From an uncultured Muribaculaceae bacterium (GTDB taxonomy: Bacteria > Bacillota_I > Bacilli_A > RF39 > UBA660), in contig CAZPLK010000001.1 of the NCBI GenBank assembly GCA_964587565.1, positions 120,088 to 184,087 on the forward strand: a DNA stretch of 64,000 bases. The letters are read 5' to 3'. Shown piece by piece: positions 46,557 to 57,615 of the stretch (position 1 is the first letter of the stretch; the number at the start of each line of letters is the position of its first letter). The notes beneath the pieces are model-generated. The model saw only the letters and a list, made by a program, of their open reading frames with translations, was not told the DNA's origin and ran no database searches. The position numbers and the translations under genes were made by a program.

Positions 46557-46952
46557 ATTATTTTAAATATTAGCACTGAATGCCATAAAGGCGTGTTTTT
46601 TGTAAGACTAATTGGTCAATTAACTAAAGATACTGTTACTAAACTAAATGATGAAGTTACAATGTTAGTTTTAGATAATGGTATTAAAAATGTAGTTTTT
46701 AACATCGAAAAATTAAAAGTAATTGATATGATTGGAATAAATGCATTATTGTATAATTATGAAATAATAAAAAACAATAAAGGATATGGTTGTTTGTGTG
46801 GGTTAGAAAATAATTTAGTAAGACAAAGAATAGAAAATAGCAGGTTATTAAAATATATGTATGAAACGAGCGATGAAATTGGTGCTTTAAATATAATTAA
46901 TTTACATAAGGAGCAAAGTTATGACAGAAAATATAACAGCAATAATCGATGA
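46557..46952 (+). CDS. spoIIAA: SpoIIAA-like STAS protein (anti-sigma-F antagonist homologue) lacking the phospho-serine
   Basis: Aligns by eye with B. subtilis SpoIIAA (VFFVRLIGQLTKDTVTKLNDEV vs [22 protein letters not shown]). The frame is open from 46548. The GAGGTGAT SD (46549-46556) suggests a non-ATG start (ATT 46557/46560); the track start GTG 46593 would truncate beta-1. Confidence 0.65.
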   Translation: MILNISTECHKGVFFVRLIGQLTKDTVTKLNDEVTMLVLDNGIKNVVFNIEKLKVIDMIGINALLYNYEIIKNNKGYGCLCGLENNLVRQRIENSRLLKYMYETSDEIGALNIINLHKEQSYDRKYNSNNR

Positions 46953-47589
46953 AAATAAAAATTTAATATACTCAATATCTCATTATTTTAAAAATTACCC
47001 TAATAAAGAAGACTTGTTTCAAGTAGGATGTATAGGGGTAATTAATGCATATAAAAATTTTAACAATAATTTAGGTGTTAAATTTACGACTTATGCATAT
47101 CCTTATATATTAGGTGAAATGAAAAGATATGTAAACTATGATCGTGGTATAAAAATTAGTAGAAAAATATTATCATTAAACTTGAGAATAGAAAAAGCAA
47201 AAGCATTATTAACACAAAAGCTTATGAGAGAGCCTACAATAGAAGAAGTTGCGAATTTTTTAAATGTTTCAGAAGATTTGATTATTCAATCATTAAATAG
47301 CATTTTAACTATAAATAGCTTTGATGAACCGATTACTGCTAGTGATGGTAAAGATTTAAATTTATATGATGTTGTAAGTTCGATTGATAATTTGGATTAT
47401 GATAGTTTAATAATGCTGAAAAAGGAACTAAACAAATTAAATGAATGTGACAAAAACATTATAAAAATGCGTTATTTTGATGATTTAACTCAAACTGAAA
47501 CAGCAAATATACTTGGAATAAATCAAGTTCAAGTTTCAAGAAAAGAACAAAAAATCTTACAAAAGTTAAGAACAGAACTTATTAATTAA
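46921..47589 (+). CDS. sigF: Sporulation sigma factor of the SigF/SigG family (SigF by synteny)
   Basis: DLFQVGCIGVINAYKNF, FTTYAYPYILGEMKRY and GINQVQVSRKEQKIL compare with B. subtilis DLFQIGCIGLLKS / GISQVQVSRLEKKIL. It lies between spoIIAA and spoVA. Confidence 0.8.
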   Translation: MTENITAIIDENKNLIYSISHYFKNYPNKEDLFQVGCIGVINAYKNFNNNLGVKFTTYAYPYILGEMKRYVNYDRGIKISRKILSLNLRIEKAKALLTQKLMREPTIEEVANFLNVSEDLIIQSLNSILTINSFDEPITASDGKDLNLYDVVSSIDNLDYDSLIMLKKELNKLNECDKNIIKMRYFDDLTQTETANILGINQVQVSRKEQKILQKLRTELIN

Positions 47590-47613
47590 AACTACTTATT
47601 AAAGTAGTTTTTT
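47589..47613 (+). terminator. Rho-independent terminator after sigF
   Basis: AAACTACTT-atta-AAGTAGTTT followed by TTT. Confidence 0.65.
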
Positions 47614-47642
47614 GTATATTAAAAATTATATATTACATAATA
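47614..47642 (+). promoter_or_regulatory. SigmaG/F-type forespore promoter of the spoVA operon
   Basis: GTATA (47614-47618), 17-nt spacer, CATAATA (47636-47642). This fits the sigmaG consensus GHATR-N17/18-CATxHTA. Confidence 0.55.
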
Positions 47643-47658
47643 ATATTGGAGGTAATTT

Positions 47659-48099
47659 ATGGAGAAAAAACAGTATAAACAAATAGTCGATAACAATACA
47701 CCAATGGAAAACAGACTATATAATGGAATGGTAGCTTTTATTGTCGGTGGTTTTATGGGAGCGATAGGGGAATTATTAATCCAGATTTATTCTTATTTTT
47801 TTAACATATCCAGTTCCGAAGCTTCTGTGTTAATGATTATGACACTTATATTTTTAGGATGCTTGTTTACTGCTTTAGGTTTTTTTGATAATTTAGTTAA
47901 TTTCGCCAAAGCAGGATTAATTATACCGATAACAGGTTTCGCCCATGCTACTATGAGTGCAGCGTTAGAACATAGGGAAGAAGGGTTAGTTACTGGAGTA
48001 GGTGCTAATATATTTAAATTATCTGGTACTGTAATTGTGTTTGGTATTGTTAGTGCTTATATTGTAGGACTAATTAGATTAATGTTTTTAGGAGGATAA
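47659..48099 (+). CDS. spoVAC: Stage V sporulation protein AC
   Basis: 146 aa, 4 TM helices, conserved PITGFAHA and GANIFKL motifs. Confidence 0.85.
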   Translation: MEKKQYKQIVDNNTPMENRLYNGMVAFIVGGFMGAIGELLIQIYSYFFNISSSEASVLMIMTLIFLGCLFTALGFFDNLVNFAKAGLIIPITGFAHATMSAALEHREEGLVTGVGANIFKLSGTVIVFGIVSAYIVGLIRLMFLGG

Positions 48100-48100
48100 T

Positions 48101-49087
48101 ATGACTTTTACATATAAAAATGTATATATAAATGATGTTAGTACAATTGTAGGCCCTTATGAAAAAAAAGGACCAATTGGAAATTTATTTGATAAATATT
48201 ACGATGATTTGTATTTTGGTGAAAAAACATGGGAACAAGCAGAAGTGAAATTAATTGTTGAAAGTGTTGAATTATTATTAAAAAAATTAAATAAAAATAA
48301 ACTAGATATTGATGTACATTTGTCTGGTGATTTGTTAAATCAAATTGTAGCAACAAATTATGCCTCGGCAAAATTAGGTATTCCATTACTAGGGCTTTAT
48401 AGTGCTTGTGCAACTAGTGTTGAGGCTCTTATTATAGGAGCAAATATGATTGAATCAAGCCAAATTAATAATTGTATTTGTAGTGTTTCTTCTCATAATA
48501 ATGCAGCGGAAAAACAATTTAGATATCCTATTGAATATGGTGGTCCTAAACCAAAAACAGCAACTTTTACAACAACTGGTTGTGCTAGTGCATATTTAAG
48601 TAAACAACTAAAAGGTATAAAAATAGAAAGTGGCACGATTGGTACTGTTAGTGAGTTAGGTATTACTGATCCTTATCATATGGGTGCTATTATGGCTTCA
48701 TCAGCAGGTGATACAATAAATAAGCATTTAAATGATTTAAATAGAACCTTTGATTATTACGATTTAATTATTACAGGAGATTTAGGAAAGTATGGTTCAA
48801 AAATTTTAATAGATTATATGAAAACGAAATACGGTATTAATTTAACTAATCATCAAGATGCTGGTGTTATGATATACGATTTAAAAACACAACCCGTTTA
48901 CTCTGGTGGAAGTGGGACAGCGTGTGCCCCGTTAGTAACATATACACATGTTTTTAAACTAATGCAAAAAAAGGAAATCAAAAAAGTATTATTAGTTGCA
49001 ACAGGTGCATTACTATCATCGACAATGGCTTTACAAAAACTTGGAATACCATCAATATCACACGCAATTAGTTTGGAGGTATTGTAA
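48101..49087 (+). CDS. spoVAD: Stage V sporulation protein AD (thiolase-like fold)
   Basis: 328 aa. YFGEKTWEQAE, GLYSACATS and SGGSGTACAP motifs typical of SpoVAD. Confidence 0.85.
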   Translation: MTFTYKNVYINDVSTIVGPYEKKGPIGNLFDKYYDDLYFGEKTWEQAEVKLIVESVELLLKKLNKNKLDIDVHLSGDLLNQIVATNYASAKLGIPLLGLYSACATSVEALIIGANMIESSQINNCICSVSSHNNAAEKQFRYPIEYGGPKPKTATFTTTGCASAYLSKQLKGIKIESGTIGTVSELGITDPYHMGAIMASSAGDTINKHLNDLNRTFDYYDLIITGDLGKYGSKILIDYMKTKYGINLTNHQDAGVMIYDLKTQPVYSGGSGTACAPLVTYTHVFKLMQKKEIKKVLLVATGALLSSTMALQKLGIPSISHAISLEVL

Positions 49088-49437
49088 TGATATACATAAA
49101 TGCATTTATATTTTGTGGAACAATTTGTTTAATTGGACAAATAATTTTAGACAACACTAAATTAACACCAGGCCACGTTACTGCTATTTTAGTTACAATT
49201 GGTACCTTTCTTGATTTATTCCACATATACGATCGCTTTGTATTGTGGGCAGGTGGTGGGGCATTAGTACCAATAACTAGTTTTGGTCATTTATTAATTC
49301 ATGGAGCACTAGCTAAAGCTAGCAACCTTGGACCGATGGGGTTAGTAATGGGGATGTTTGATTTAACAGCCGCTGGAATTGTTTCAGTAATCTTTTTCTC
49401 TTTTATATTAGCTTTAATATTTAAACCTAAAGATTAA
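49087..49437 (+). CDS. spoVAEb: Stage V sporulation protein AE(b)
   Basis: 116 aa, 3-4 TM helices, GGGALVPITSFGH motif. ATGA-type coupling to spoVAD. Confidence 0.8.
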   Translation: MIYINAFIFCGTICLIGQIILDNTKLTPGHVTAILVTIGTFLDLFHIYDRFVLWAGGGALVPITSFGHLLIHGALAKASNLGPMGLVMGMFDLTAAGIVSVIFFSFILALIFKPKD

Positions 49438-49479
49438 AAATGTAAATATGCTTTAAAAATGATTTTAAATGGTGATAAT

Positions 49480-52344
49480 ATGAAGAAAAATAATAAAAAA
49501 GCATTTACATTAGTAGAGTTATTAGCAGTAATATTTATTATTGGCATTTTATCTGTAATTACTATACCTACCATTAACAAATTAACTTTGCAAAGTAAAG
49601 AACAATTATATAAAAATCAAATAGATAACATAAAACATGGTGCTAAAAACTGGGCTGCTAGTAATTTTTACATGTTGCCAGAAAGTGAAGGAGAACAAAT
49701 TACACTTACATTAGGACAGTTACAAATAGGAGGATTTGTTGCATCTGATATTAAAGATCCGAGAAATAAAAAACCATTTCCAAGAGATATGGAAATAATA
49801 ATCAAAAGAATTATGAATAGTTATCGCTATGAAGTAATAGAAGGTAGTGGTGGTGAAAATGGTAACTTAGATTTTGATTCTCCAACTATAATTTTAAATG
49901 GTTCAGCTCATGAAATTGTGGAAATTAATACAAATTATGTTGAAAAAGGTGCACTAGCAAAAGATCCAAGTGGTAGTCTAATAGATGATATTAATATTTT
50001 AATTCAATCTAACAATAAAGAAGTAGATAAAGTAGATACTAGTAAATTAGTACAATATAAAATAACTTATAGTGCTGTTTATAATAATAATACGGCAACT
50101 GCAATAAGAACAGTTACTATTAAAGATACAATACCCCCGAATTTAAATGTACCTGGTAATATAATAATATCATCCGATGAGGTATTAAATTACGATTTTA
50201 TGGAAGGGGTTAGTGCAACAGATAACTCTCTTGAAAATGTAAATATTACAATAAAAGGAACAGTAAGTGTACTTCCAGGAAAGTACTTGCTAACTTATAT
50301 TGCGACAGATTCATCTTCCAATAAAACAGAAAAAACAAGGCACATTACAGTAGTAAGTGCTACATATCCAACAATATCAATAATAGGTAGTAGTATAGTA
50401 AATATAAATGTGGAAGAACCATATAAAGACATGGGAGCAACTGCTAGTGATTTATTAGATGGTGATTTAACTAATAAAATTATTGTTAGTGGTACAGTTA
50501 ATGTTAATATACCTGGAAATTATAATATTACTTATGAAGTTACTAATAGCATAGGTAAAACTACAACTGTAATAAGGGAAGTAAAAGTAATTGATAATAT
50601 ACCACCTGTTATAGTTTTTGGGACAAATGGAAACAGTACTTATGCAAGAAATTATAATACCAAAATAACAGTAAATGATATACATTCATTGGTAAATAAA
50701 AATTCACTAAAATATTTATGGTCAACAACTACTACAACTCCTAGTGAAAGTTCTTTTACTAATAAATTCACAAGTGGTGATATAATATCAACGCCAAATG
50801 ATTTAAGTGGTAGTTATTATTTATGGATAATAGCAAAAGACACCGTTGGGAATACTGCAATTAAAAGAACAAATGCATTTAACTTGGATAATACTAATCC
50901 TAGTGTTACAAACATAGTTAGTAATGTAACAAATATAACAGAAACAGGTTTTACTATAACAAGAAGCGGAAATGCAACTGATGCCCATAGTGGATTAGCT
51001 AGCATTCCATATATGTATCAAATAAGTACAAACAATGTAAGTTGGATTACAAATTGTACTAGTAGTGCTACAACTTGTGTTGTAACTGGGTTAGACCTTG
51101 AAACAAAATACTATTATAGAATATGTGCATCGGATAAAGTTGGTAATCAATCGTGTGTAGCAAGTAAAAACACTACAACCGAAGGCGGTGATTATAGTAT
51201 TGTTAAAAACGTTAACAGACCAGTATTGTTGCCAGGTATGACGCCAATTAAATGGAATGGTATGACAGAGGTGATTACTACTACAAATGATACATCTTGG
51301 TATGATTATACTAATAAAATGTGGGCTAATGCAAAAACAAAAGACGGATCTTATTGGGTGTGGGTACCAAGATATGCATATCAAATTTCAAGTGGTTATC
51401 ATACTAAAAGTGCTGGTAATATAAATATAAAATTTTTACAAGGTAATACTAATGTTGCATCTGATAATACAACAGTGGCAACAACCCCTACTTATAGTGG
51501 TTCTAGGCAAACTAATTATATAAGACATCCCGCTTTCCAATTTGGAACAGAAGAAATCCTAGGATTTTGGGTAGCAAAATTCGAACCAAGTGGTACTTTA
51601 AGCAATATAAATATTTTACCAAACGCATCAACATTAACAAATATAAATGTTAAAGATATGTTTAATGCAAGTTTAAATATGAAATCCAATTCAAAGTATG
51701 GTTGGGGTACCAATACTGTTGATACCCACATGGCTAAAAATACAGAATGGGGAGCAATAGCTTATTTAAGTAAATCCATATATGGGGCGAATAGTGAAGT
51801 GTGGATTAATAATAGTAACAATTATACGACTGGTTGTGCTGGAAGTAGTATATCAGCTAGTAGTTATTCTGGTTGTCAAAACGCTTATAATACAACAATT
51901 GGTGTTAGAGCTAGTACAACACATAATATATATGGTGTGTACGATATGAGTGGTGGCGCGAATGAATATGTAACAGGAAATTTAAATCGTACAACAGCAA
52001 GTAGTGGTTTTTCTATAACTGAACTTAGAGGAATAGATTCAAAGTATATTGATGTATATAGTGGTTATAATAGTACGATATTTGGTGATGCTATTTATGA
52101 AACGAGTTTAACTCAAAAAATGAGTGATTTTGGCAATGCTAACAAATTAAATGAATCATGGCACAATCAGAGATCAACTTTAATCGGTACTTATAGTATA
52201 GCTGGAAGAAGTATATCAGCACCATGGTATATTAGAGGTGATGATTATGCGGGGAGAGAATTAGCAGGATTATTTTCATTTAGACCCGATGCTGGAAATG
52301 CTTCATCAAGTTATTCTTTTAGACCAATAGCAATACCTCAATAA
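49480..52344 (+). CDS. 954-aa modular type IV pilin-like protein (pilin module, 3 Ig-like DUF5011-type repeats, Fn3-like domain, FGE/SUMF1-like lectin-fold domain)
   Basis: ATG 49480 follows a GGTGA SD. Class III signal MKKNNKKA|FTLVELLAVIFIIGIL. Repeats of the P.I.L.G....pY.d.Ga.A.D..dG.l...I...G.V....pG.Y.itY...D..gN pattern, DxHSGL Fn3-like segment. The C-terminus has GFWVAKFEPS...NTEWGAIAYL...GVYDMSGGANEYV...WYIRGDD...SFRP. Confidence 0.7.
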   Translation: MKKNNKKAFTLVELLAVIFIIGILSVITIPTINKLTLQSKEQLYKNQIDNIKHGAKNWAASNFYMLPESEGEQITLTLGQLQIGGFVASDIKDPRNKKPFPRDMEIIIKRIMNSYRYEVIEGSGGENGNLDFDSPTIILNGSAHEIVEINTNYVEKGALAKDPSGSLIDDINILIQSNNKEVDKVDTSKLVQYKITYSAVYNNNTATAIRTVTIKDTIPPNLNVPGNIIISSDEVLNYDFMEGVSATDNSLENVNITIKGTVSVLPGKYLLTYIATDSSSNKTEKTRHITVVSATYPTISIIGSSIVNINVEEPYKDMGATASDLLDGDLTNKIIVSGTVNVNIPGNYNITYEVTNSIGKTTTVIREVKVIDNIPPVIVFGTNGNSTYARNYNTKITVNDIHSLVNKNSLKYLWSTTTTTPSESSFTNKFTSGDIISTPNDLSGSYYLWIIAKDTVGNTAIKRTNAFNLDNTNPSVTNIVSNVTNITETGFTITRSGNATDAHSGLASIPYMYQISTNNVSWITNCTSSATTCVVTGLDLETKYYYRICASDKVGNQSCVASKNTTTEGGDYSIVKNVNRPVLLPGMTPIKWNGMTEVITTTNDTSWYDYTNKMWANAKTKDGSYWVWVPRYAYQISSGYHTKSAGNINIKFLQGNTNVASDNTTVATTPTYSGSRQTNYIRHPAFQFGTEEILGFWVAKFEPSGTLSNINILPNASTLTNINVKDMFNASLNMKSNSKYGWGTNTVDTHMAKNTEWGAIAYLSKSIYGANSEVWINNSNNYTTGCAGSSISASSYSGCQNAYNTTIGVRASTTHNIYGVYDMSGGANEYVTGNLNRTTASSGFSITELRGIDSKYIDVYSGYNSTIFGDAIYETSLTQKMSDFGNANKLNESWHNQRSTLIGTYSIAGRSISAPWYIRGDDYAGRELAGLFSFRPDAGNASSSYSFRPIAIPQ

Positions 52345-52374
52345 GAACAAATAACATTTATTTGTTCTTTTATT
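52344..52374 (+). terminator. Rho-independent terminator after the 954-aa pilin-like gene
   Basis: AGAACAAATAA-cat-TTATTTGTTCT perfect 11-bp stem followed by a T run. Confidence 0.75.
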
Positions 52375-52417
52375 ATATATTCCAACAATTAGTCCATAAT
52401 AAAAAAGAGGTAATATT

Positions 52418-54082
52418 ATGATTCAAAATAAAAACAAAGGTTTTACATTGATCGAATTATTAAGTGTAATTGTAGTTTTTGTTATTATAATGCTTATAGT
52501 AAGTCCAGTAGTTATAAACATAATAAAAAGTGCTAATAAAGGTGCTTTTAAAAACAGTGTTAACGGGATAGTGAAAAGTGCTATATTAGAACAATCTAAA
52601 AATGTATTAACCGGTAAAGAAGTGAATGAACTTATTTTTACATATGAAAACGGTGTTGAAAAATCAAATATTATTGGGGCAAAACTTAATTATAAAGGTA
52701 AAAGTCCAAGTGAAGGTGTTATTATTGTCAATAAAAAAGGACAAGTTTCACTTGCTCTTTTCGATTCAATGTGTGCTATTAAATCATTCGAAGGCAATGT
52801 GGAAATTAAACCAAATAGTAAAGAAGATTGTCAATTAAAATTATTAATACCTACTATTGAATTAATTGGAAATAATACAATAGATATAGAAATAAATACT
52901 AAATATGAAGAACTAGGTGTAATTGCAAAAAAATATAACGGAGATGTTATTAAAAATGTTGATATTAAAATTAAATATAATGGCATAATACAAAAAACTG
53001 TTGATACTAGTAAATTAGGAACATATGAATTAATATATTCAGTACAAGAAGATAATCAAAGGGTAGAGATATTAAGAATTATACATATTGTAGATACAAT
53101 CCCTCCTGTTTTAAACATTCCAAAAGATATAGTTATTGACATCAAAAATTTTAATGATTTTGATTTTATGGATGGTGTTAGTGCCACGGATAATAGCAAT
53201 GAAAAAATTAATATAATTACAACTAGTAACATTGTTCCAATACCAGGTAATTATTATATTAAATATGAAGCATTTGATTCATCAGGGAACAAAACGGAAA
53301 AGATAAGGCAAATTAACATAATAGATACAACACCACCTAATATAAATAAATTAGTTATATCAACTAAAAATGTAACATCTAATTCATTTGTCATTATAAT
53401 GGAAGGAGAAGTTTTTGACGAACACAGTGACTTAGCACAAAAACCATTTATTTATCAAACAAGTACTGATAACGTTAATTGGCAAACAAAATGTACAACA
53501 AGTAATAAAGATTGTTTAGTTGAAAATTTAAATAATAACACAACATATTATTACCGTTTATGTGTCATAGATATATATGATAATAAAGCGTGTTCTAATA
53601 ATAAAAGTATAACAACTAGTAATCCGCTTTATTACTACGATAAATATAGGGTAGGTATTAATTACTATAATTACCGAAATCCTTCATCAAATTTTTCTTA
53701 TAGTTATACAACATCTGAAAAATCATTATCAAGTGGTAGTACCATATCAATTGCAGGTACAACGAGTTATGGTTTTAATAGTACATCTGGTTTTTATGGT
53801 ACTGGCTCATCTGTAACATTGACTCAATCAACAATTTCAAACGGATATACTAGATACTATGCAAGCGGAAGTTCAATTTCACAACATAAAATAGTTAATA
53901 AAAGAACATCAGGCTCAACAGTATATTGGAAAGAAGAAGTTTATGTTATGAGTTGTCAATATGATACAAGTTATACGAGAGGAGCGTTTATAGAAACTGT
54001 GACAGCTATTACTGGTCAGTATCCTAATAACGGTAGACATACAGATGGTTATTGGTATGTCAGAAGAGAATTGGTTAGTTAA
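52418..54082 (+). CDS. 554-aa modular type IV pilin-like protein (pilin module, 2 Ig-like repeats, Fn3-like domain, Tyr/Ser/Gly-rich C-terminal domain)
   Basis: Class III signal MIQNKNKG|FTLIELLSVIVVFVII. The pilin module is paralogous to 41156-42205 (LNYKGKSPSEGVIIVNKKGQVSLALF vs LKFKGKKPESGMIIINNNGVVSLALY). The Ig/Fn3 part is paralogous to 49480-52344 (DFMDGVSATDNS / DFMEGVSATDNS). Confidence 0.7.
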   Translation: MIQNKNKGFTLIELLSVIVVFVIIMLIVSPVVINIIKSANKGAFKNSVNGIVKSAILEQSKNVLTGKEVNELIFTYENGVEKSNIIGAKLNYKGKSPSEGVIIVNKKGQVSLALFDSMCAIKSFEGNVEIKPNSKEDCQLKLLIPTIELIGNNTIDIEINTKYEELGVIAKKYNGDVIKNVDIKIKYNGIIQKTVDTSKLGTYELIYSVQEDNQRVEILRIIHIVDTIPPVLNIPKDIVIDIKNFNDFDFMDGVSATDNSNEKINIITTSNIVPIPGNYYIKYEAFDSSGNKTEKIRQINIIDTTPPNINKLVISTKNVTSNSFVIIMEGEVFDEHSDLAQKPFIYQTSTDNVNWQTKCTTSNKDCLVENLNNNTTYYYRLCVIDIYDNKACSNNKSITTSNPLYYYDKYRVGINYYNYRNPSSNFSYSYTTSEKSLSSGSTISIAGTTSYGFNSTSGFYGTGSSVTLTQSTISNGYTRYYASGSSISQHKIVNKRTSGSTVYWKEEVYVMSCQYDTSYTRGAFIETVTAITGQYPNNGRHTDGYWYVRRELVS

Positions 54083-54104
54083 AAGGGCGTTATACCCCTT
54101 TTTC
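54081..54104 (+). terminator. Rho-independent terminator
   Basis: AAAAGGG-cgttatac-CCCTTTT followed by TC. Confidence 0.55.
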
Positions 54105-54180: not shown

Positions 54181-57100
54181 ATGAAGAAAAAATTAACAAT
54201 TGATGGTAATGAAGCTTGTACTATAAGTGCTTATGCCTTTACTGAAGTTGCAGGTATATATCCTATTACTCCATCGAGTCCTATGGCGGAATTAATGGAT
54301 ACTTGGAGTAATGAGGGGAAATTAAATTTATTTAATGACACTGTTAAAGTTGTAGAAATGCAGAGTGAAGCTGGGGCTGCAGGTATGGTACACGGTTCTT
54401 TACAAGCAGGCCTTTTAACAACAACATTTACGTCTAGTCAAGGCTTACTTTTAATGATACCAAACATATACAAAATGGTTGGGGAAATGCTACCCGGCGT
54501 GATTCATGTAGCAGCAAGATCAATCTCGACTCAAGCACTTAGTATTTTTGGTGATCATCAAGATATTTATGCAACAAGGCAAACAGGTATAACAATGCTA
54601 GCTTCTTCATCTGTTCAAGATGTAGCATATTTATCAGCTATCGCCCATTTAGTAGCGATAAAATCGTCTCTACCAGTAATGCACTTTTTTGATGGTTTTA
54701 GAACAAGTCATGAATTACAAAAAATAGATACATTAGATGTGGGAACTTATTGTAAATTAATCGATAAAGAAGCGGTGAGAAAATTTAGGCAAAGGGCGCT
54801 GAAACCAAATAAGGCAATTACAAGAGGTACTGCCCAAAATGATGATATTTATTTCCAAGCTGTGGAAGTAAGAAATAAATTTCACGATAAAGTTCCATTT
54901 ATTGTAAATGAATATATGGAAAAAATTAATGAAATAGCAGGTACAAATTATTTACCATTTAATTATTATGGAAGTGAGAATGCTGAAAATATTATTGTTG
55001 CTATGGGTTCTGTAACTGAAACAATTAAGGAAACAATAGATTATCTAAATAACTTAGATTATAATATCGGTTTAATCGAAGTACATTTATATAGACCATT
55101 TAGTTCAAAACATTTATTAAACGTACTACCTAAAACAGTTAAGAAAATCGCAGTTTTGGATAGAACAAAAGAACCAGGTAGTATAGGAGAACCGCTATAT
55201 TTAGATGTAGTTGCTGCATTAAAAGGAAAAGATATTTCCATTGTTGGTGGTCGCTATGGATTGTCAAGTAAAAATACAACACCACGTCAAATAAAAGCAG
55301 TTTACGATATGTTAAGTGCTGAATTAAAACATAACTTTACAATCGGCATCGAAGATGATGTTACTAACTTAAGCTTAGAAGTTGAAGAAGATTTTACAAT
55401 AACAAATGCTAGAGAATTTGTAATATATGGTTACGGTAGTGATGGTATGGTAACAGCAGCCCAATCAATTATAAAAATTGTTGGTGATAATACAAATAAA
55501 TATGTTCAAGGTTATTTTCAATATGATTCCAAAAAATCAGGTGGAGTCACAGTAGGACACTTAAGGTTTTGTGACAACTCAATTCGTGCCACTTATTATG
55601 TTGAAAAACCAGAATTGGTAGTAGTAACAAAAGATAGTTATTTAAATGATTTTAAAGTTATTCACAACATAGCTAATGATGGAACATTTATATTAGCTAC
55701 ATCTAAAACTGATGAAGATGTCCAAAAATTACTTACAAAAGAAATGAAACAAATAATTAATGAAAGAAATATTAAATTTTATATTATAAACGCGTACGAA
55801 CTAGCGCGTAAAGTGGGACTTCAAAATAGAATAAGCACTATTATGCAAACTGCTATTATGAAAGTAACTAATATTGTTGATTACAATTTAGCTATAAAGG
55901 AAATGAAACAAATGGTAGCAGATACCTTTGCATTAAGAGGTAATAATATTGTTGAAGCCAACTATGATGCAATTGATAGTGTTGAACAATATTTGAAAAA
56001 AATAGAAGTAAATATGGATAACAATAGGGAAGAGAAAAATCATGTTTTTGACGGTGTTTTCGAGGCAATGTCAAGAAGAGAAGGTGATTTATTACCAACA
56101 TCAGCATTTTTAACTAACCCTGATGGAACATTTGAAGGTGGAACAACAGCTTTTGAAAAAAGAGCAATTAGTGATGTAGTCCCAAGGTGGATTAGTAATA
56201 ATTGTATACAATGTGCTCAGTGCTCATTCGTTTGTCCACATGCTGTTATAAGACCATTTCATTTAAGTGAAGAAGAATATGAAAAAGCTCCTGACTATAT
56301 TAAGGAAAGGTGTATTAAACCTATTGAGAAACATTTACAAGAATATTATTTCATAATAAGTGTATCCGTAAAAGATTGTACAGGATGCCGCTTGTGCATT
56401 AACGTCTGTCCAGGTCGTGGTGGCCAAAAAGCTTTAGTTCCAAAAGATTTAACTGGGGAAATAAAAAACTATGAACAAGATATAGCAGATTATTTATTTA
56501 ACAACATTAGTGATAAAAATTTACTGCCTAACACATCAATAAAAGGTACTCAATTAAAAGAACCTAAATTTAGCTTTAGTGGAGCTTGTGCAGGATGTGG
56601 AGAAACCGCTTATATTAAATTGTTAACACAACTGTTTGGTGATCAAATGATTATCGCTAACGCCACTGGATGTTCATCAATATATGGTGCTAGTGCACCT
56701 AGTATGCCATACACGGTTCCTTGGGCGAGTTCTTTATTTGAAGATAATGCAGAATATGGTTATGGTATACTTGTTGCTTCTGATGTAATGAGAAATAGAA
56801 TAAGAAAAATAATGACAGATAATCTAGATGGTGTTAATAAAGAATGGTTTTCAAAGTGGCTTGAAAATTATGATGATTTTAAAATTACAAAAGAAGTTTA
56901 TGAAAATATAAATTATGATAAAGCTCCAAAAGAGTTAATCGAATTAAAAGATTATATAAAAAGTAGAGTTATTTGGACAATAGGCGGTGATGGCTGGGCA
57001 TATGACATTGGTTTTGGCGGAATAGATCATGTTTTGGCAAGTAATGACAATGTTAATATATTAGTATTAGATTCACAAGTTTATTCGAATACTGGTGGGC

Positions 57101-57615
57101 AATCATCTAAAGCTAGTCCAAGAGGAAGTGTTGCACCATTTACCGCAAGTGGAAAACAAGTGGCGAGAAAAGATTTAGCAAGAATGGCACTCGCTTATCC
57201 ACATGTTTATGTTGCGCAAGTAAGTTTGGCAGCAAATCCAATGCAACTAATTCGGGCTTTTAACGAAGCAGCACAGCATAATGGACCATCAATAGTTATT
57301 GCTTATACGCCATGTATAGCACATGGAATTAAAGGTGGAATGTCAAATAGTTTAGAAAATGAAAAAGCAGCGACAAAATCAGGTTATTTTCCAATTTTCA
57401 GATATAACCCTAAAACTGAAGTATTTACTTTAGATAGCAAGAATGTTGACTTTGATATGTATGAGGATTTCTTAAATACACAAAGGAGATACACAGTTTT
57501 AAAAAAAGTAAATCCAAAACAGGCCCAAGAATTACTAACTGCCCAAAAAGAAGATTCTATTAAAAAATTTGAATATTATAAAAATCTTTCAAAATTAGAA
57601 AAAACTATCGAATGA
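54181..57615 (+). CDS. nifJ: Pyruvate:ferredoxin (flavodoxin) oxidoreductase, single-polypeptide type
   Basis: 1144 aa. N-terminal IDGNEA...YPITPSS, two CxxCxxCxxxCP motifs, and a TPP-binding GGDGWAYDIG...NTGGQ region. Confidence 0.95.
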   Translation: MKKKLTIDGNEACTISAYAFTEVAGIYPITPSSPMAELMDTWSNEGKLNLFNDTVKVVEMQSEAGAAGMVHGSLQAGLLTTTFTSSQGLLLMIPNIYKMVGEMLPGVIHVAARSISTQALSIFGDHQDIYATRQTGITMLASSSVQDVAYLSAIAHLVAIKSSLPVMHFFDGFRTSHELQKIDTLDVGTYCKLIDKEAVRKFRQRALKPNKAITRGTAQNDDIYFQAVEVRNKFHDKVPFIVNEYMEKINEIAGTNYLPFNYYGSENAENIIVAMGSVTETIKETIDYLNNLDYNIGLIEVHLYRPFSSKHLLNVLPKTVKKIAVLDRTKEPGSIGEPLYLDVVAALKGKDISIVGGRYGLSSKNTTPRQIKAVYDMLSAELKHNFTIGIEDDVTNLSLEVEEDFTITNAREFVIYGYGSDGMVTAAQSIIKIVGDNTNKYVQGYFQYDSKKSGGVTVGHLRFCDNSIRATYYVEKPELVVVTKDSYLNDFKVIHNIANDGTFILATSKTDEDVQKLLTKEMKQIINERNIKFYIINAYELARKVGLQNRISTIMQTAIMKVTNIVDYNLAIKEMKQMVADTFALRGNNIVEANYDAIDSVEQYLKKIEVNMDNNREEKNHVFDGVFEAMSRREGDLLPTSAFLTNPDGTFEGGTTAFEKRAISDVVPRWISNNCIQCAQCSFVCPHAVIRPFHLSEEEYEKAPDYIKERCIKPIEKHLQEYYFIISVSVKDCTGCRLCINVCPGRGGQKALVPKDLTGEIKNYEQDIADYLFNNISDKNLLPNTSIKGTQLKEPKFSFSGACAGCGETAYIKLLTQLFGDQMIIANATGCSSIYGASAPSMPYTVPWASSLFEDNAEYGYGILVASDVMRNRIRKIMTDNLDGVNKEWFSKWLENYDDFKITKEVYENINYDKAPKELIELKDYIKSRVIWTIGGDGWAYDIGFGGIDHVLASNDNVNILVLDSQVYSNTGGQSSKASPRGSVAPFTASGKQVARKDLARMALAYPHVYVAQVSLAANPMQLIRAFNEAAQHNGPSIVIAYTPCIAHGIKGGMSNSLENEKAATKSGYFPIFRYNPKTEVFTLDSKNVDFDMYEDFLNTQRRYTVLKKVNPKQAQELLTAQKEDSIKKFEYYKNLSKLEKTIE

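Follow-up and report, generated by a model that had tools for sequence, protein, structure and literature searches.

The locus and its features

The subject of this work is pil954, a gene for a 954-aa modular type IV pilin-like protein located directly behind the sporulation operon spoVAC-spoVAD-spoVAEb. It lies in a 64,000-nt stretch of DNA, called here the window, which corresponds to positions 120088-184087 of contig C1 in the genome assembly G000 (1.01 Mb, 27% GC, 91% complete). The host belongs to the RF39 type of uncultured Bacilli, reduced-genome, sortase-less, spore-forming bacteria from gut or bioreactor. Positions are given in window coordinates unless another contig of the same genome (C2, C3, C5, C13, or C15) is named. 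In endospore formers, spoVAC-spoVAD-spoVAEb form a tricistronic, sigmaG-dependent unit, which in Bacillus subtilis is located downstream of spoIIA. The original prediction, whose coordinates and sequence statements were all confirmed on re-reading, extended this unit to pil954. The analysis described below suggests that pil954 is probably transcribed by read-through from spoVA, and that this linkage appears to be a one-off rather than a conserved sporulation feature. The elements of the locus are as follows.

47589-47613, + strand: intrinsic-terminator hairpin at the end of the spoIIAA-sigF unit (10-bp stem, folding free energy (dG) -8.4 kcal/mol, z -2.5, then a T-run)
47614-47642, + strand: putative sigmaG/F-type forespore promoter of the spoVA operon, GTATA-17-CATAATA (sequence read directly)
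47659-48099, + strand: spoVAC (Pfam PF03862, E 1.1e-32)
48101-49087, + strand: spoVAD (Pfam PF07451, E 2.9e-118)
49087-49437, + strand: spoVAEb (Pfam PF03862, E 9.4e-29)
49438-49479, + strand: 42-nt junction between spoVAEb and pil954, with no hairpin or convincing promoter (folding and motif scans)
49480-52344, + strand: pil954, 954-aa modular type IV pilin-like protein (Pfam, PDB matches, AlphaFold2/Foldseek)
52343-52374, + strand: AT-rich terminator-like hairpin after pil954 (12-bp stem, dG -9.8 kcal/mol, z -5.1, then a T-run)
52373-52401, + strand: near-consensus forespore-type promoter motif TTATA-17-CATAATA before pil554 (motif scan)
52418-54082, + strand: pil554, second modular pilin-like gene, 554 aa (Pfam N_methyl and PF16403)
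54081-54102, + strand: GC-containing terminator hairpin, putative positional orthologue of the spoVA terminator of the closest congener (dG -10.5 kcal/mol; compared by eye with G004)
54181-57615, + strand: gene taken to encode pyruvate:ferredoxin oxidoreductase (PFOR), the probable ancestral downstream neighbor of spoVA (N-terminus MKKK.TIDGNEA...; we assume this label from the recognized N-terminal sequence rather than from a family search)

The junction between spoVAEb and pil954

The 42 nt that separate the spoVAEb stop from pil954 were described in the original prediction as free of hairpins, and this description holds. The best fold of this segment reaches only -2.5 kcal/mol, which is no better than that of shuffled sequences (z +0.5), and a scan of 49438-49479 for a hairpin followed by a T-run found none. 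The Shine-Dalgarno (SD) sequence GGTGA was located where it had been placed, at 49470-49474, 5 nt before the ATG at 49480 that opens the 954-aa open reading frame (ORF); an in-frame alternative ATG at 49459 has no SD sequence. The claim that the first strong terminator comes only after pil954 was likewise upheld, as none of 200 shuffles folds as well as the hairpin at 52343-52374, which is followed by TTTTATTAT, and a consensus scan detected no + strand terminator inside the gene. With regard to sequence, pil954 has the properties of a spoVA cistron, being located on the same strand, behind a short gap, and with no intervening terminator or promoter.

The absence of a terminator at this point is not the usual state. 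Of 78 relatives, 45 have a hairpin of -5 kcal/mol or better together with a T-run, located at the spoVAEb stop or shortly behind it and frequently overlapping the stop itself. The missing terminator in the window therefore represents a real departure.

The spoVA promoter and forespore sigma factors

Both elements that had been reported upstream of spoVAC were recovered. The terminator hairpin at 47589-47613 folds with the energy and z-score listed above and is followed by a T-run, while the promoter at 47614-47642 agrees at every position with the B. subtilis sigmaG consensus GHATR-17/18-CATNHTA, which was scanned for as G[ACT]AT[AG]-17/18-CATN[ACT]TA. When regions upstream of spoVAC were taken from 77 related loci, fetched with SpoVAD, the consensus was present in 70 of them, with the -10 element ending 15-20 nt before the start codon, and the conserved promoter was usually positioned directly 3' of a terminator. 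In G000, the strict motif combined with an SD sequence and an ORF occurs only four times, in front of a lipoprotein gene, spoVAC, a 65-aa ORF, and sigG. Additionally, SigG, SigE, SigK, and SigF are the best-scoring NCBIfam models for four sigma factors of this genome, most of the scores being just under the equivalog cut-offs. Because the promoter is conserved in 70 of 77 relatives, has only four strict genomic sites, and is accompanied by the corresponding sigma factors, its assignment to spoVA is as good as sequence alone allows.

Two further observations concern this regulatory setting. The sigG gene (C2:85686, minus strand) is preceded by GAATA-18-CATTATA, which is consistent with sigF/sigG-dependent, autoregulated transcription as in B. 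subtilis. Upstream of the spoVA operon, a STAS (SpoIIAA-like) gene directly overlaps a sigF-like gene (46593-47589), with no spoIIAB between them; these two genes end at 47589, just before the operon.

Promoters of pil954 and its paralogues

A motif scan identified 14 pilin-like genes in G000, nine of which carry either TTG(A/T)(C/A)A-16/18-TAnnnT between -49 and -59 or, at about -32, an extended -10 element. The four closest paralogues of pil954 (1599 aa and 689 aa on C2, 1096 aa on C5, and 295 aa on C3) all possess a near-perfect TTGACA-17-TATAAT/TATACT/TAATAT, in each case preceded by a terminator. In front of pil954, neither TTGNNN-16/18-TANNNT nor an extended -10 element was found in a sensible position within 49000-49479, and regex patterns for sigmaA, sigmaG, sigmaF, sigmaE, and sigmaK returned no match over 49000-49500. 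The sole consensus match near the gene is TTTAAA-16-GATAAT at 49452-49479, which agrees at 9 of 12 positions and has its -10 element abutting the ATG. Since its four closest paralogues carry sigmaA-type promoters and pil954 does not, read-through from spoVA is the likeliest source of its transcription.

A promoter census was also performed on metagenome loci, where sigmaA-like motifs were found in 10 of the 13 pilin-like genes that passed the filters, a sample too small for wider use. G000 itself contains a second pilin-like gene that stands at the end of an unrelated operon. This gene, of 501 aa at C2:133298 (minus strand), begins 17 nt behind an RseP/site-2-protease-like gene and has no promoter motif.

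Synteny and the origin of the two-gene cassette

The original prediction proposed synteny checks in related genomes, and these speak against a conserved linkage. A pilin-like gene follows spoVAEb in none of the six informative congeners. In three of them (G004, G006, and G007), whose SpoVAD proteins are 77-83% identical to that of the window, the PFOR gene, with the N-terminus shared by all of them, begins 114-136 nt after spoVAEb, with a terminator between the two. The spacer in G004 consists of the spoVAEb stop, 27 nt, the hairpin AAAAAGGGGCAATTGCATTGTCCTTTTT, the PFOR promoter TATAGTATAAT, a leader, and the ATG. Comparison of the printed sequences by eye indicated that the PFOR promoter and leader are common to G004 and the window, and that the window hairpin AAAAGGGCGTTATACCCCTTTTT (54081-54102), which overlaps the pil554 stop codon, is placed like the G004 hairpin. 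Thus, pil954 and pil554 are located where the spoVAEb stop and its terminator were formerly separated by a short spacer. Because the congeners have the order spoVAEb-terminator-PFOR without pilin-like genes, the simplest history would be that the two-gene cassette was inserted ahead of the ancestral terminator in this lineage only.

No direct or inverted repeats of the kind left by mobile elements flank 49438-54102. When metagenome contigs were searched for exact copies of the junction sequence, there was no match; a protein-based metagenome scan for pil954 recovered homologues that were only partial and at most 59% identical, and the 90% cluster of pil954 has a single member.

In the wider family, a pilin-like gene follows spoVAEb in 3 of approximately 68 informative loci (about 4%), which is about the chance rate. 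With 15-50 pilin-like genes in a genome of about 1000 genes, three to four cases in about 70 are the chance expectation. Even in these cases, the two genes are separated by a terminator or a promoter-like element: L108 and L126 have a clear terminator between spoVAEb and the following pilin-like gene, and L088 has a promoter-like TTGATT...TGTGGTAAAAT element in this position. The gene after spoVAEb is generally highly variable across the approximately 68 loci and includes scpA, uvrA, murF-like genes, genes for small secreted proteins, and others.

A different gene is found behind spoVAEb in six relatives (L028, L091, L096, L107, L122, and L124). It encodes a secreted or membrane protein of about 121 aa (MKKFPFIFLGIIL...NPS[VI][VI]TK...) and starts 1-4 nt after the spoVAEb stop. 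This gene is conserved in at least these six relatives and looks like a genuine fourth spoVA cistron in those lineages.

Architecture of the pil954 protein

The pil954 protein begins with a pilin module that includes the class III signal (aa 1 to about 135) and continues with an immunoglobulin-like (Ig-like) region (about 136-477), a fibronectin type III-like (Fn3-like) segment (about 461-574), and a head (565-954). A class III signal was defined as a short, basic leader with Gly at -1, then Phe at +1 and Glu at +5, followed by about 20 hydrophobic residues. The N-terminus of pil954, MKKNNKKA followed across the predicted prepilin site by FTLVELLAVIFIIGILSVI, was counted as such a signal, with Ala at -1 instead of Gly, as is the case in three close paralogues; its Pfam N_methyl score is 26.3 bits against a cut-off of 21.2. 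In a PDB search with aa 1-147, residues 2-65 matched geopilin, MshA, and PilA chains (E 4e-6 to 3e-3), mainly along the alpha-1 helix, and residues 4-120 share 38% identity with a 118-aa pilin from another locus of G000. Pfam recognizes three PF16403 Ig-like domains in the protein, while the Fn3-like segment gives a sub-threshold fn3 match. Pil954 can therefore be described as a modular pilin in the sense of Raynaud et al. (PMC8179133), in which a pilin module is joined to domains not specific to type IV filament biology.

The head, 390 residues long, belongs to no Pfam family, and searches against the PDB by single sequence and by profile gave no match. Its AlphaFold2 model, built with 50 homologues, has a mean predicted local distance difference test (pLDDT) score of 93.2 and a predicted TM-score (pTM) of 0.93. 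With this model, Foldseek returned TaqVP as the top match (E 1.6e-10, probability 1.0), then Mtd and TvpA, followed by FGE and EgtB. According to the model, the head has a C-type-lectin (CLec) fold, so that the earlier description of the protein as lectin-headed is supported by both the model and the Foldseek matches. A match of FGE-sulfatase (PF03781) to YGVYDMSGG, covering 67 residues (17.0 bits, E 0.0049), stayed below the gathering score of 23.3 bits; it agrees with the C-type-lectin fold.

The protein is a mosaic of its paralogues. Residues 1-476 share 55-57% identity with the C2 paralogues, 469-570 share 40% with pil554, and 575-948 share 40% with a C15 paralogue. By analogy with its paralogues, pil954 is expected to bind a ligand or glycan, either at the surface of the cell or on type IV filaments.

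The possibility that pil954 is a variable protein of a diversity-generating retroelement (DGR) was considered and rejected for this assembly, because a blastn search with the last 544 nt of the gene found no second copy (template repeat) in the 91%-complete sequence. Nor could a variable region be recognized in the head. The sole reverse transcriptase of G000 (RVT_1, 465-aa frame, C13:12303-12998) is not linked to pil954.

The pilin-like family and the pilus machinery

The pilin-like family is large, fast-evolving, and highly variable between species, and some relatives carry dozens of copies in a genome of 1 Mb. In G000, about 14 members are located at many unrelated places, and the segments matching pil954 number roughly 14 to 31 there and hundreds in relatives. 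At least 1819 database proteins contain the pil954 head domain; most of them are 525-620 aa long and have the pilin N-terminus directly joined to the head. No full-length orthologue of pil954 was found in the genome and metagenome collections searched.

The genome also encodes components for filament assembly: a prepilin peptidase (Peptidase_A24, C5:20405-20731), three T2SSE ATPases (C5:18890, C2:15784, and C3:30429), and two T2SSF platform proteins (C5:21090-22073 and C2:13371-14555). A type IV pilus locus at C5:12325-24174 combines T2SSE, prepilin peptidase, and T2SSF genes and adjoins the gene for the 1096-aa paralogue and a housekeeping sigma factor gene. No sortase gene was detected in the 91%-complete assembly, in agreement with published work according to which the related orders RFN20 and ML615J-28 lack sortases (PMC10868615). 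Modular pilin-like proteins are probably the main surface-display system of RF39-type Bacilli.

pil554 and hints of forespore timing

The second gene of the cassette, pil554, encodes a pilin module, Ig-like and Fn3-like domains, and a Tyr/Ser/Gly-rich C-terminus whose last 174 aa have no Pfam match. Its Ig-like region is shared with pil954 (families D1-D3). Directly 3' of the pil954 hairpin, the motif TTATA-17-CATAATA (52373-52401) has its -10 element ending 16 nt before the pil554 ATG, a geometry like that at spoVAC, and it may be a forespore promoter of pil554. Such a relaxed motif, in which the first base of the -35 element is freed, occurs at only eight ORF-proximal sites genome-wide in G000; one of the eight ORFs is presumably SspI-like, judged by eye.

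Forespore-type motifs before pilin-like genes were also sought in other genomes of the family. The strict motif combined with a pilin N-terminus was found at 13 genes in 5 of 201 genomes, compared with one gene for the reversed control. Five motif-bearing genomes are near the chance estimate (roughly 0.02 per genome), and the enrichment is not decisive. Eight of the 13 genes are pilin-like paralogues of G197 (L153-L159; e.g., L154:1499-1547), in which GAATA-N17-CATACTA, a match to the forespore sigma consensus, stands about 17 nt before the ATG. The one gene of this group that was inspected is of the pilin-CLec type, with a C-type-lectin head; the copies are recent paralogues, and a TTGACA box is present about 30 nt further upstream of the forespore-type motif.

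The closest long homologue of pil954, P0002 (992 aa, within L146:2946-8782), is encoded just after dpaA, dpaB, and a PASTA/polysaccharide-deacetylase gene. As a hint of a link to dipicolinic acid (DPA) it was set aside, since its gene has its own TATAAT box and the protein has a hydrophobic N-terminus but no pilin motif. No strict forespore motif was found before the pilus machinery genes of G000.

Interpretation

The observations are best accommodated by operon capture involving a member of an expanding, mobile family of adhesins, and we assign this reading a probability of about 0.6. According to this reading, the pil954-pil554 cassette would have entered the short spacer between the spoVAEb stop and the spoVA terminator, and pil954 would have arrived without a promoter of the TTGACA-17-TATAAT type seen in its paralogues, or would have lost it later. 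The gene would then have become a fourth cistron of the sigmaG-dependent spoVA mRNA, and the extended transcript would end at the hairpin 52343-52374, or partly at the old terminator 54081-54102. Forespore-timed expression of pil954 would be a consequence of the landing site and not of a conserved design, while the protein itself would follow the plan of its family, with a pilin module for anchoring or assembly, an Ig/Fn3 stalk, and a ligand-binding head. Co-transcription with spoVA by read-through, taken by itself, has a likelihood of around two in three. Of the original prediction, forespore co-transcription thus stands as the most economical reading of a gene that follows spoVAEb on its strand after only 42 nt and has neither a hairpin before it nor a canonical sigmaA promoter of its own. 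The further proposal of a dedicated inner-forespore-membrane protein facing the cortex is unsupported, as the linkage is absent in congeners, occurs at chance level in the family, and involves a multigene family scattered over the genome.

Several considerations weigh against this interpretation. Rho-dependent termination or RNA processing could in principle take place in the 42-nt gap, and an unrecognized promoter may be hidden in the 3' part of spoVAEb. In a genome of 27% GC, weak promoter-like sites occur everywhere, TTTAAA-16-GATAAT at 49452-49479 being an example. The direction of the insertion depends on parsimony, with few congeners and fragmented assemblies, and two of the genomes compared, G002 and G003, have a different neighbor downstream of spoVAEb. 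Finally, the motif before pil554, together with the motifs in relatives, might mean that sporulation-timed expression was selected rather than acquired by accident.

In one rival explanation, pil954 would be expressed independently in vegetative cells, like its paralogues, from its own weak or non-canonical promoter in the gap or at the 3' end of spoVAEb, with negligible or irrelevant read-through. AT-rich genomes tolerate weak promoters, the pil954 paralogues are apparently sigmaA-driven, and, by eye, the 5' untranslated segment TGATTTTAAATGGTGATAAT resembles the leader of the C5 paralogue, so that a piece of an older upstream sequence may have been carried in together with pil954. The 9-of-12 sigmaA-like site is the concrete candidate; however, with its -10 element abutting the ATG, it would place the transcription start inside the coding sequence, and matches of this quality are no commoner than in shuffles (55 found, 60 expected). 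As no better-placed sigmaA-type or extended -10 motif exists in 49000-49479, we consider independent expression unlikely. A silent or poorly expressed reserve copy, which would serve as a recombination reservoir by analogy with silent pilin cassettes or would be decaying, is the least probable of the explanations, with very little weight assigned to it. The lack of its own promoter, the mosaic architecture, and the variability of the family between species are compatible with such a role, but the 954-codon frame is intact and has a good SD sequence and start codon, the 40-57% identity to paralogues gives no sign of recent gene conversion, the cassette has no flanking repeats, and a position behind an active operon without a terminator should give some transcription.

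The remaining alternative is a selected forespore program, in which pil954 would be transcribed from the spoVA promoter and pil554 from its own sigmaG/F-like promoter, and both products would reside in the inner forespore membrane with a role in the spore or in germination. This explanation draws on the location of pil954 inside a sigmaG-type unit, on the spoVAC-like geometry of the motif right after the pil954 hairpin, on the 13 motif-bearing pilin-like genes against one in the reversed control, and on the position of P0002 behind dpaA-dpaB and the PASTA/deacetylase gene. Other observations speak against it. The congeners lack the spoVA synteny, which in the family is about as frequent as expected by chance, and in other lineages a terminator or promoter-like site intervenes between spoVAEb and the pilin-like gene. 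The five motif-bearing genomes correspond approximately to chance, the G197 copies being recent paralogues with an upstream TTGACA; the P0002 gene is preceded by its own TATAAT box, and its product lacks the pilin motif; and the pilus machinery genes have no strict forespore motif. We therefore regard a selected program as distinctly improbable, and operon capture as the preferred reading.

Comparison with known systems

Modular type IV (minor) pilins are known from Streptococcus sanguinis, in which PilB carries a von Willebrand factor A (vWA) module and PilC a lectin module (Raynaud et al. 2021, PMC8179133; PMC9934059), and such architectures are reported to be widespread and highly diverse (PMC8179133). 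Pil954 shares with PilB and PilC an N-terminal class III signal/pilin module and bulky C-terminal modules that bind ligands or, in pil954, are expected to do so, as well as a monoderm host whose genome encodes a prepilin peptidase, an assembly ATPase, and a platform protein. It differs from them in its much longer stalk, with three PF16403 stretches and an Fn3-like domain, and in its CLec head of the DGR-variable-protein/FGE type, which is not among the architectures described in PMC8179133. It also has Ala instead of Gly at -1, its gene lies outside the pilus locus and behind spoVA, and its family is massively expanded.

The best fold matches of the head are the DGR variable proteins TaqVP (5vf4), Bordetella phage Mtd (1yu0-1yu3), and Treponema TvpA (2y3c). 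However, TM-scores to these proteins are only about 0.3-0.45, and neither a template repeat nor a linked reverse transcriptase accompanies pil954; consequently, there is no evidence of mutagenic retrohoming at this gene.

The spoVA operon of the window corresponds to that of endospore formers such as B. subtilis in its gene order, its place after spoIIAA-sigF, its upstream terminator, and its sigmaG-consensus promoter. In contrast to the spoVA operons of most relatives, which terminate at the spoVAEb stop, it runs without a terminator into a foreign gene of 954 codons. In operon capture, or 3' appendage, a promoterless gene inserted before a resident terminator inherits the regulation of the host operon. 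The mechanism proposed for pil954 is thus not new, and the case stands out only in that the capturing operon is forespore-specific. Known kinds cover every part of the locus (modular pilin, spoVA operon, and CLec head), and what is new is this member and its location.

Significance

For annotation, the case illustrates that position alone does not make pil954 a sporulation gene. If the selected forespore program were nevertheless true, both proteins would be stored in the inner membrane of the spore, and a lectin-tipped type IV filament or adhesin would be ready at germination and outgrowth. This would constitute a spore-stage adhesion device, a strategy that may have evolved more than once, the G197 paralogues with GAATA-17-CATACTA being a possible further instance. 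If read-through is real, pil954 would provide a natural example of a surface-adhesin gene that gained forespore timing through its landing site, and thereby of a route by which a regulon can grow. More interesting than the linkage to spoVA is the finding that sortase-less Bacilli of the RF39 type possess very large families of modular pilin-like proteins bearing DGR-like CLec heads.

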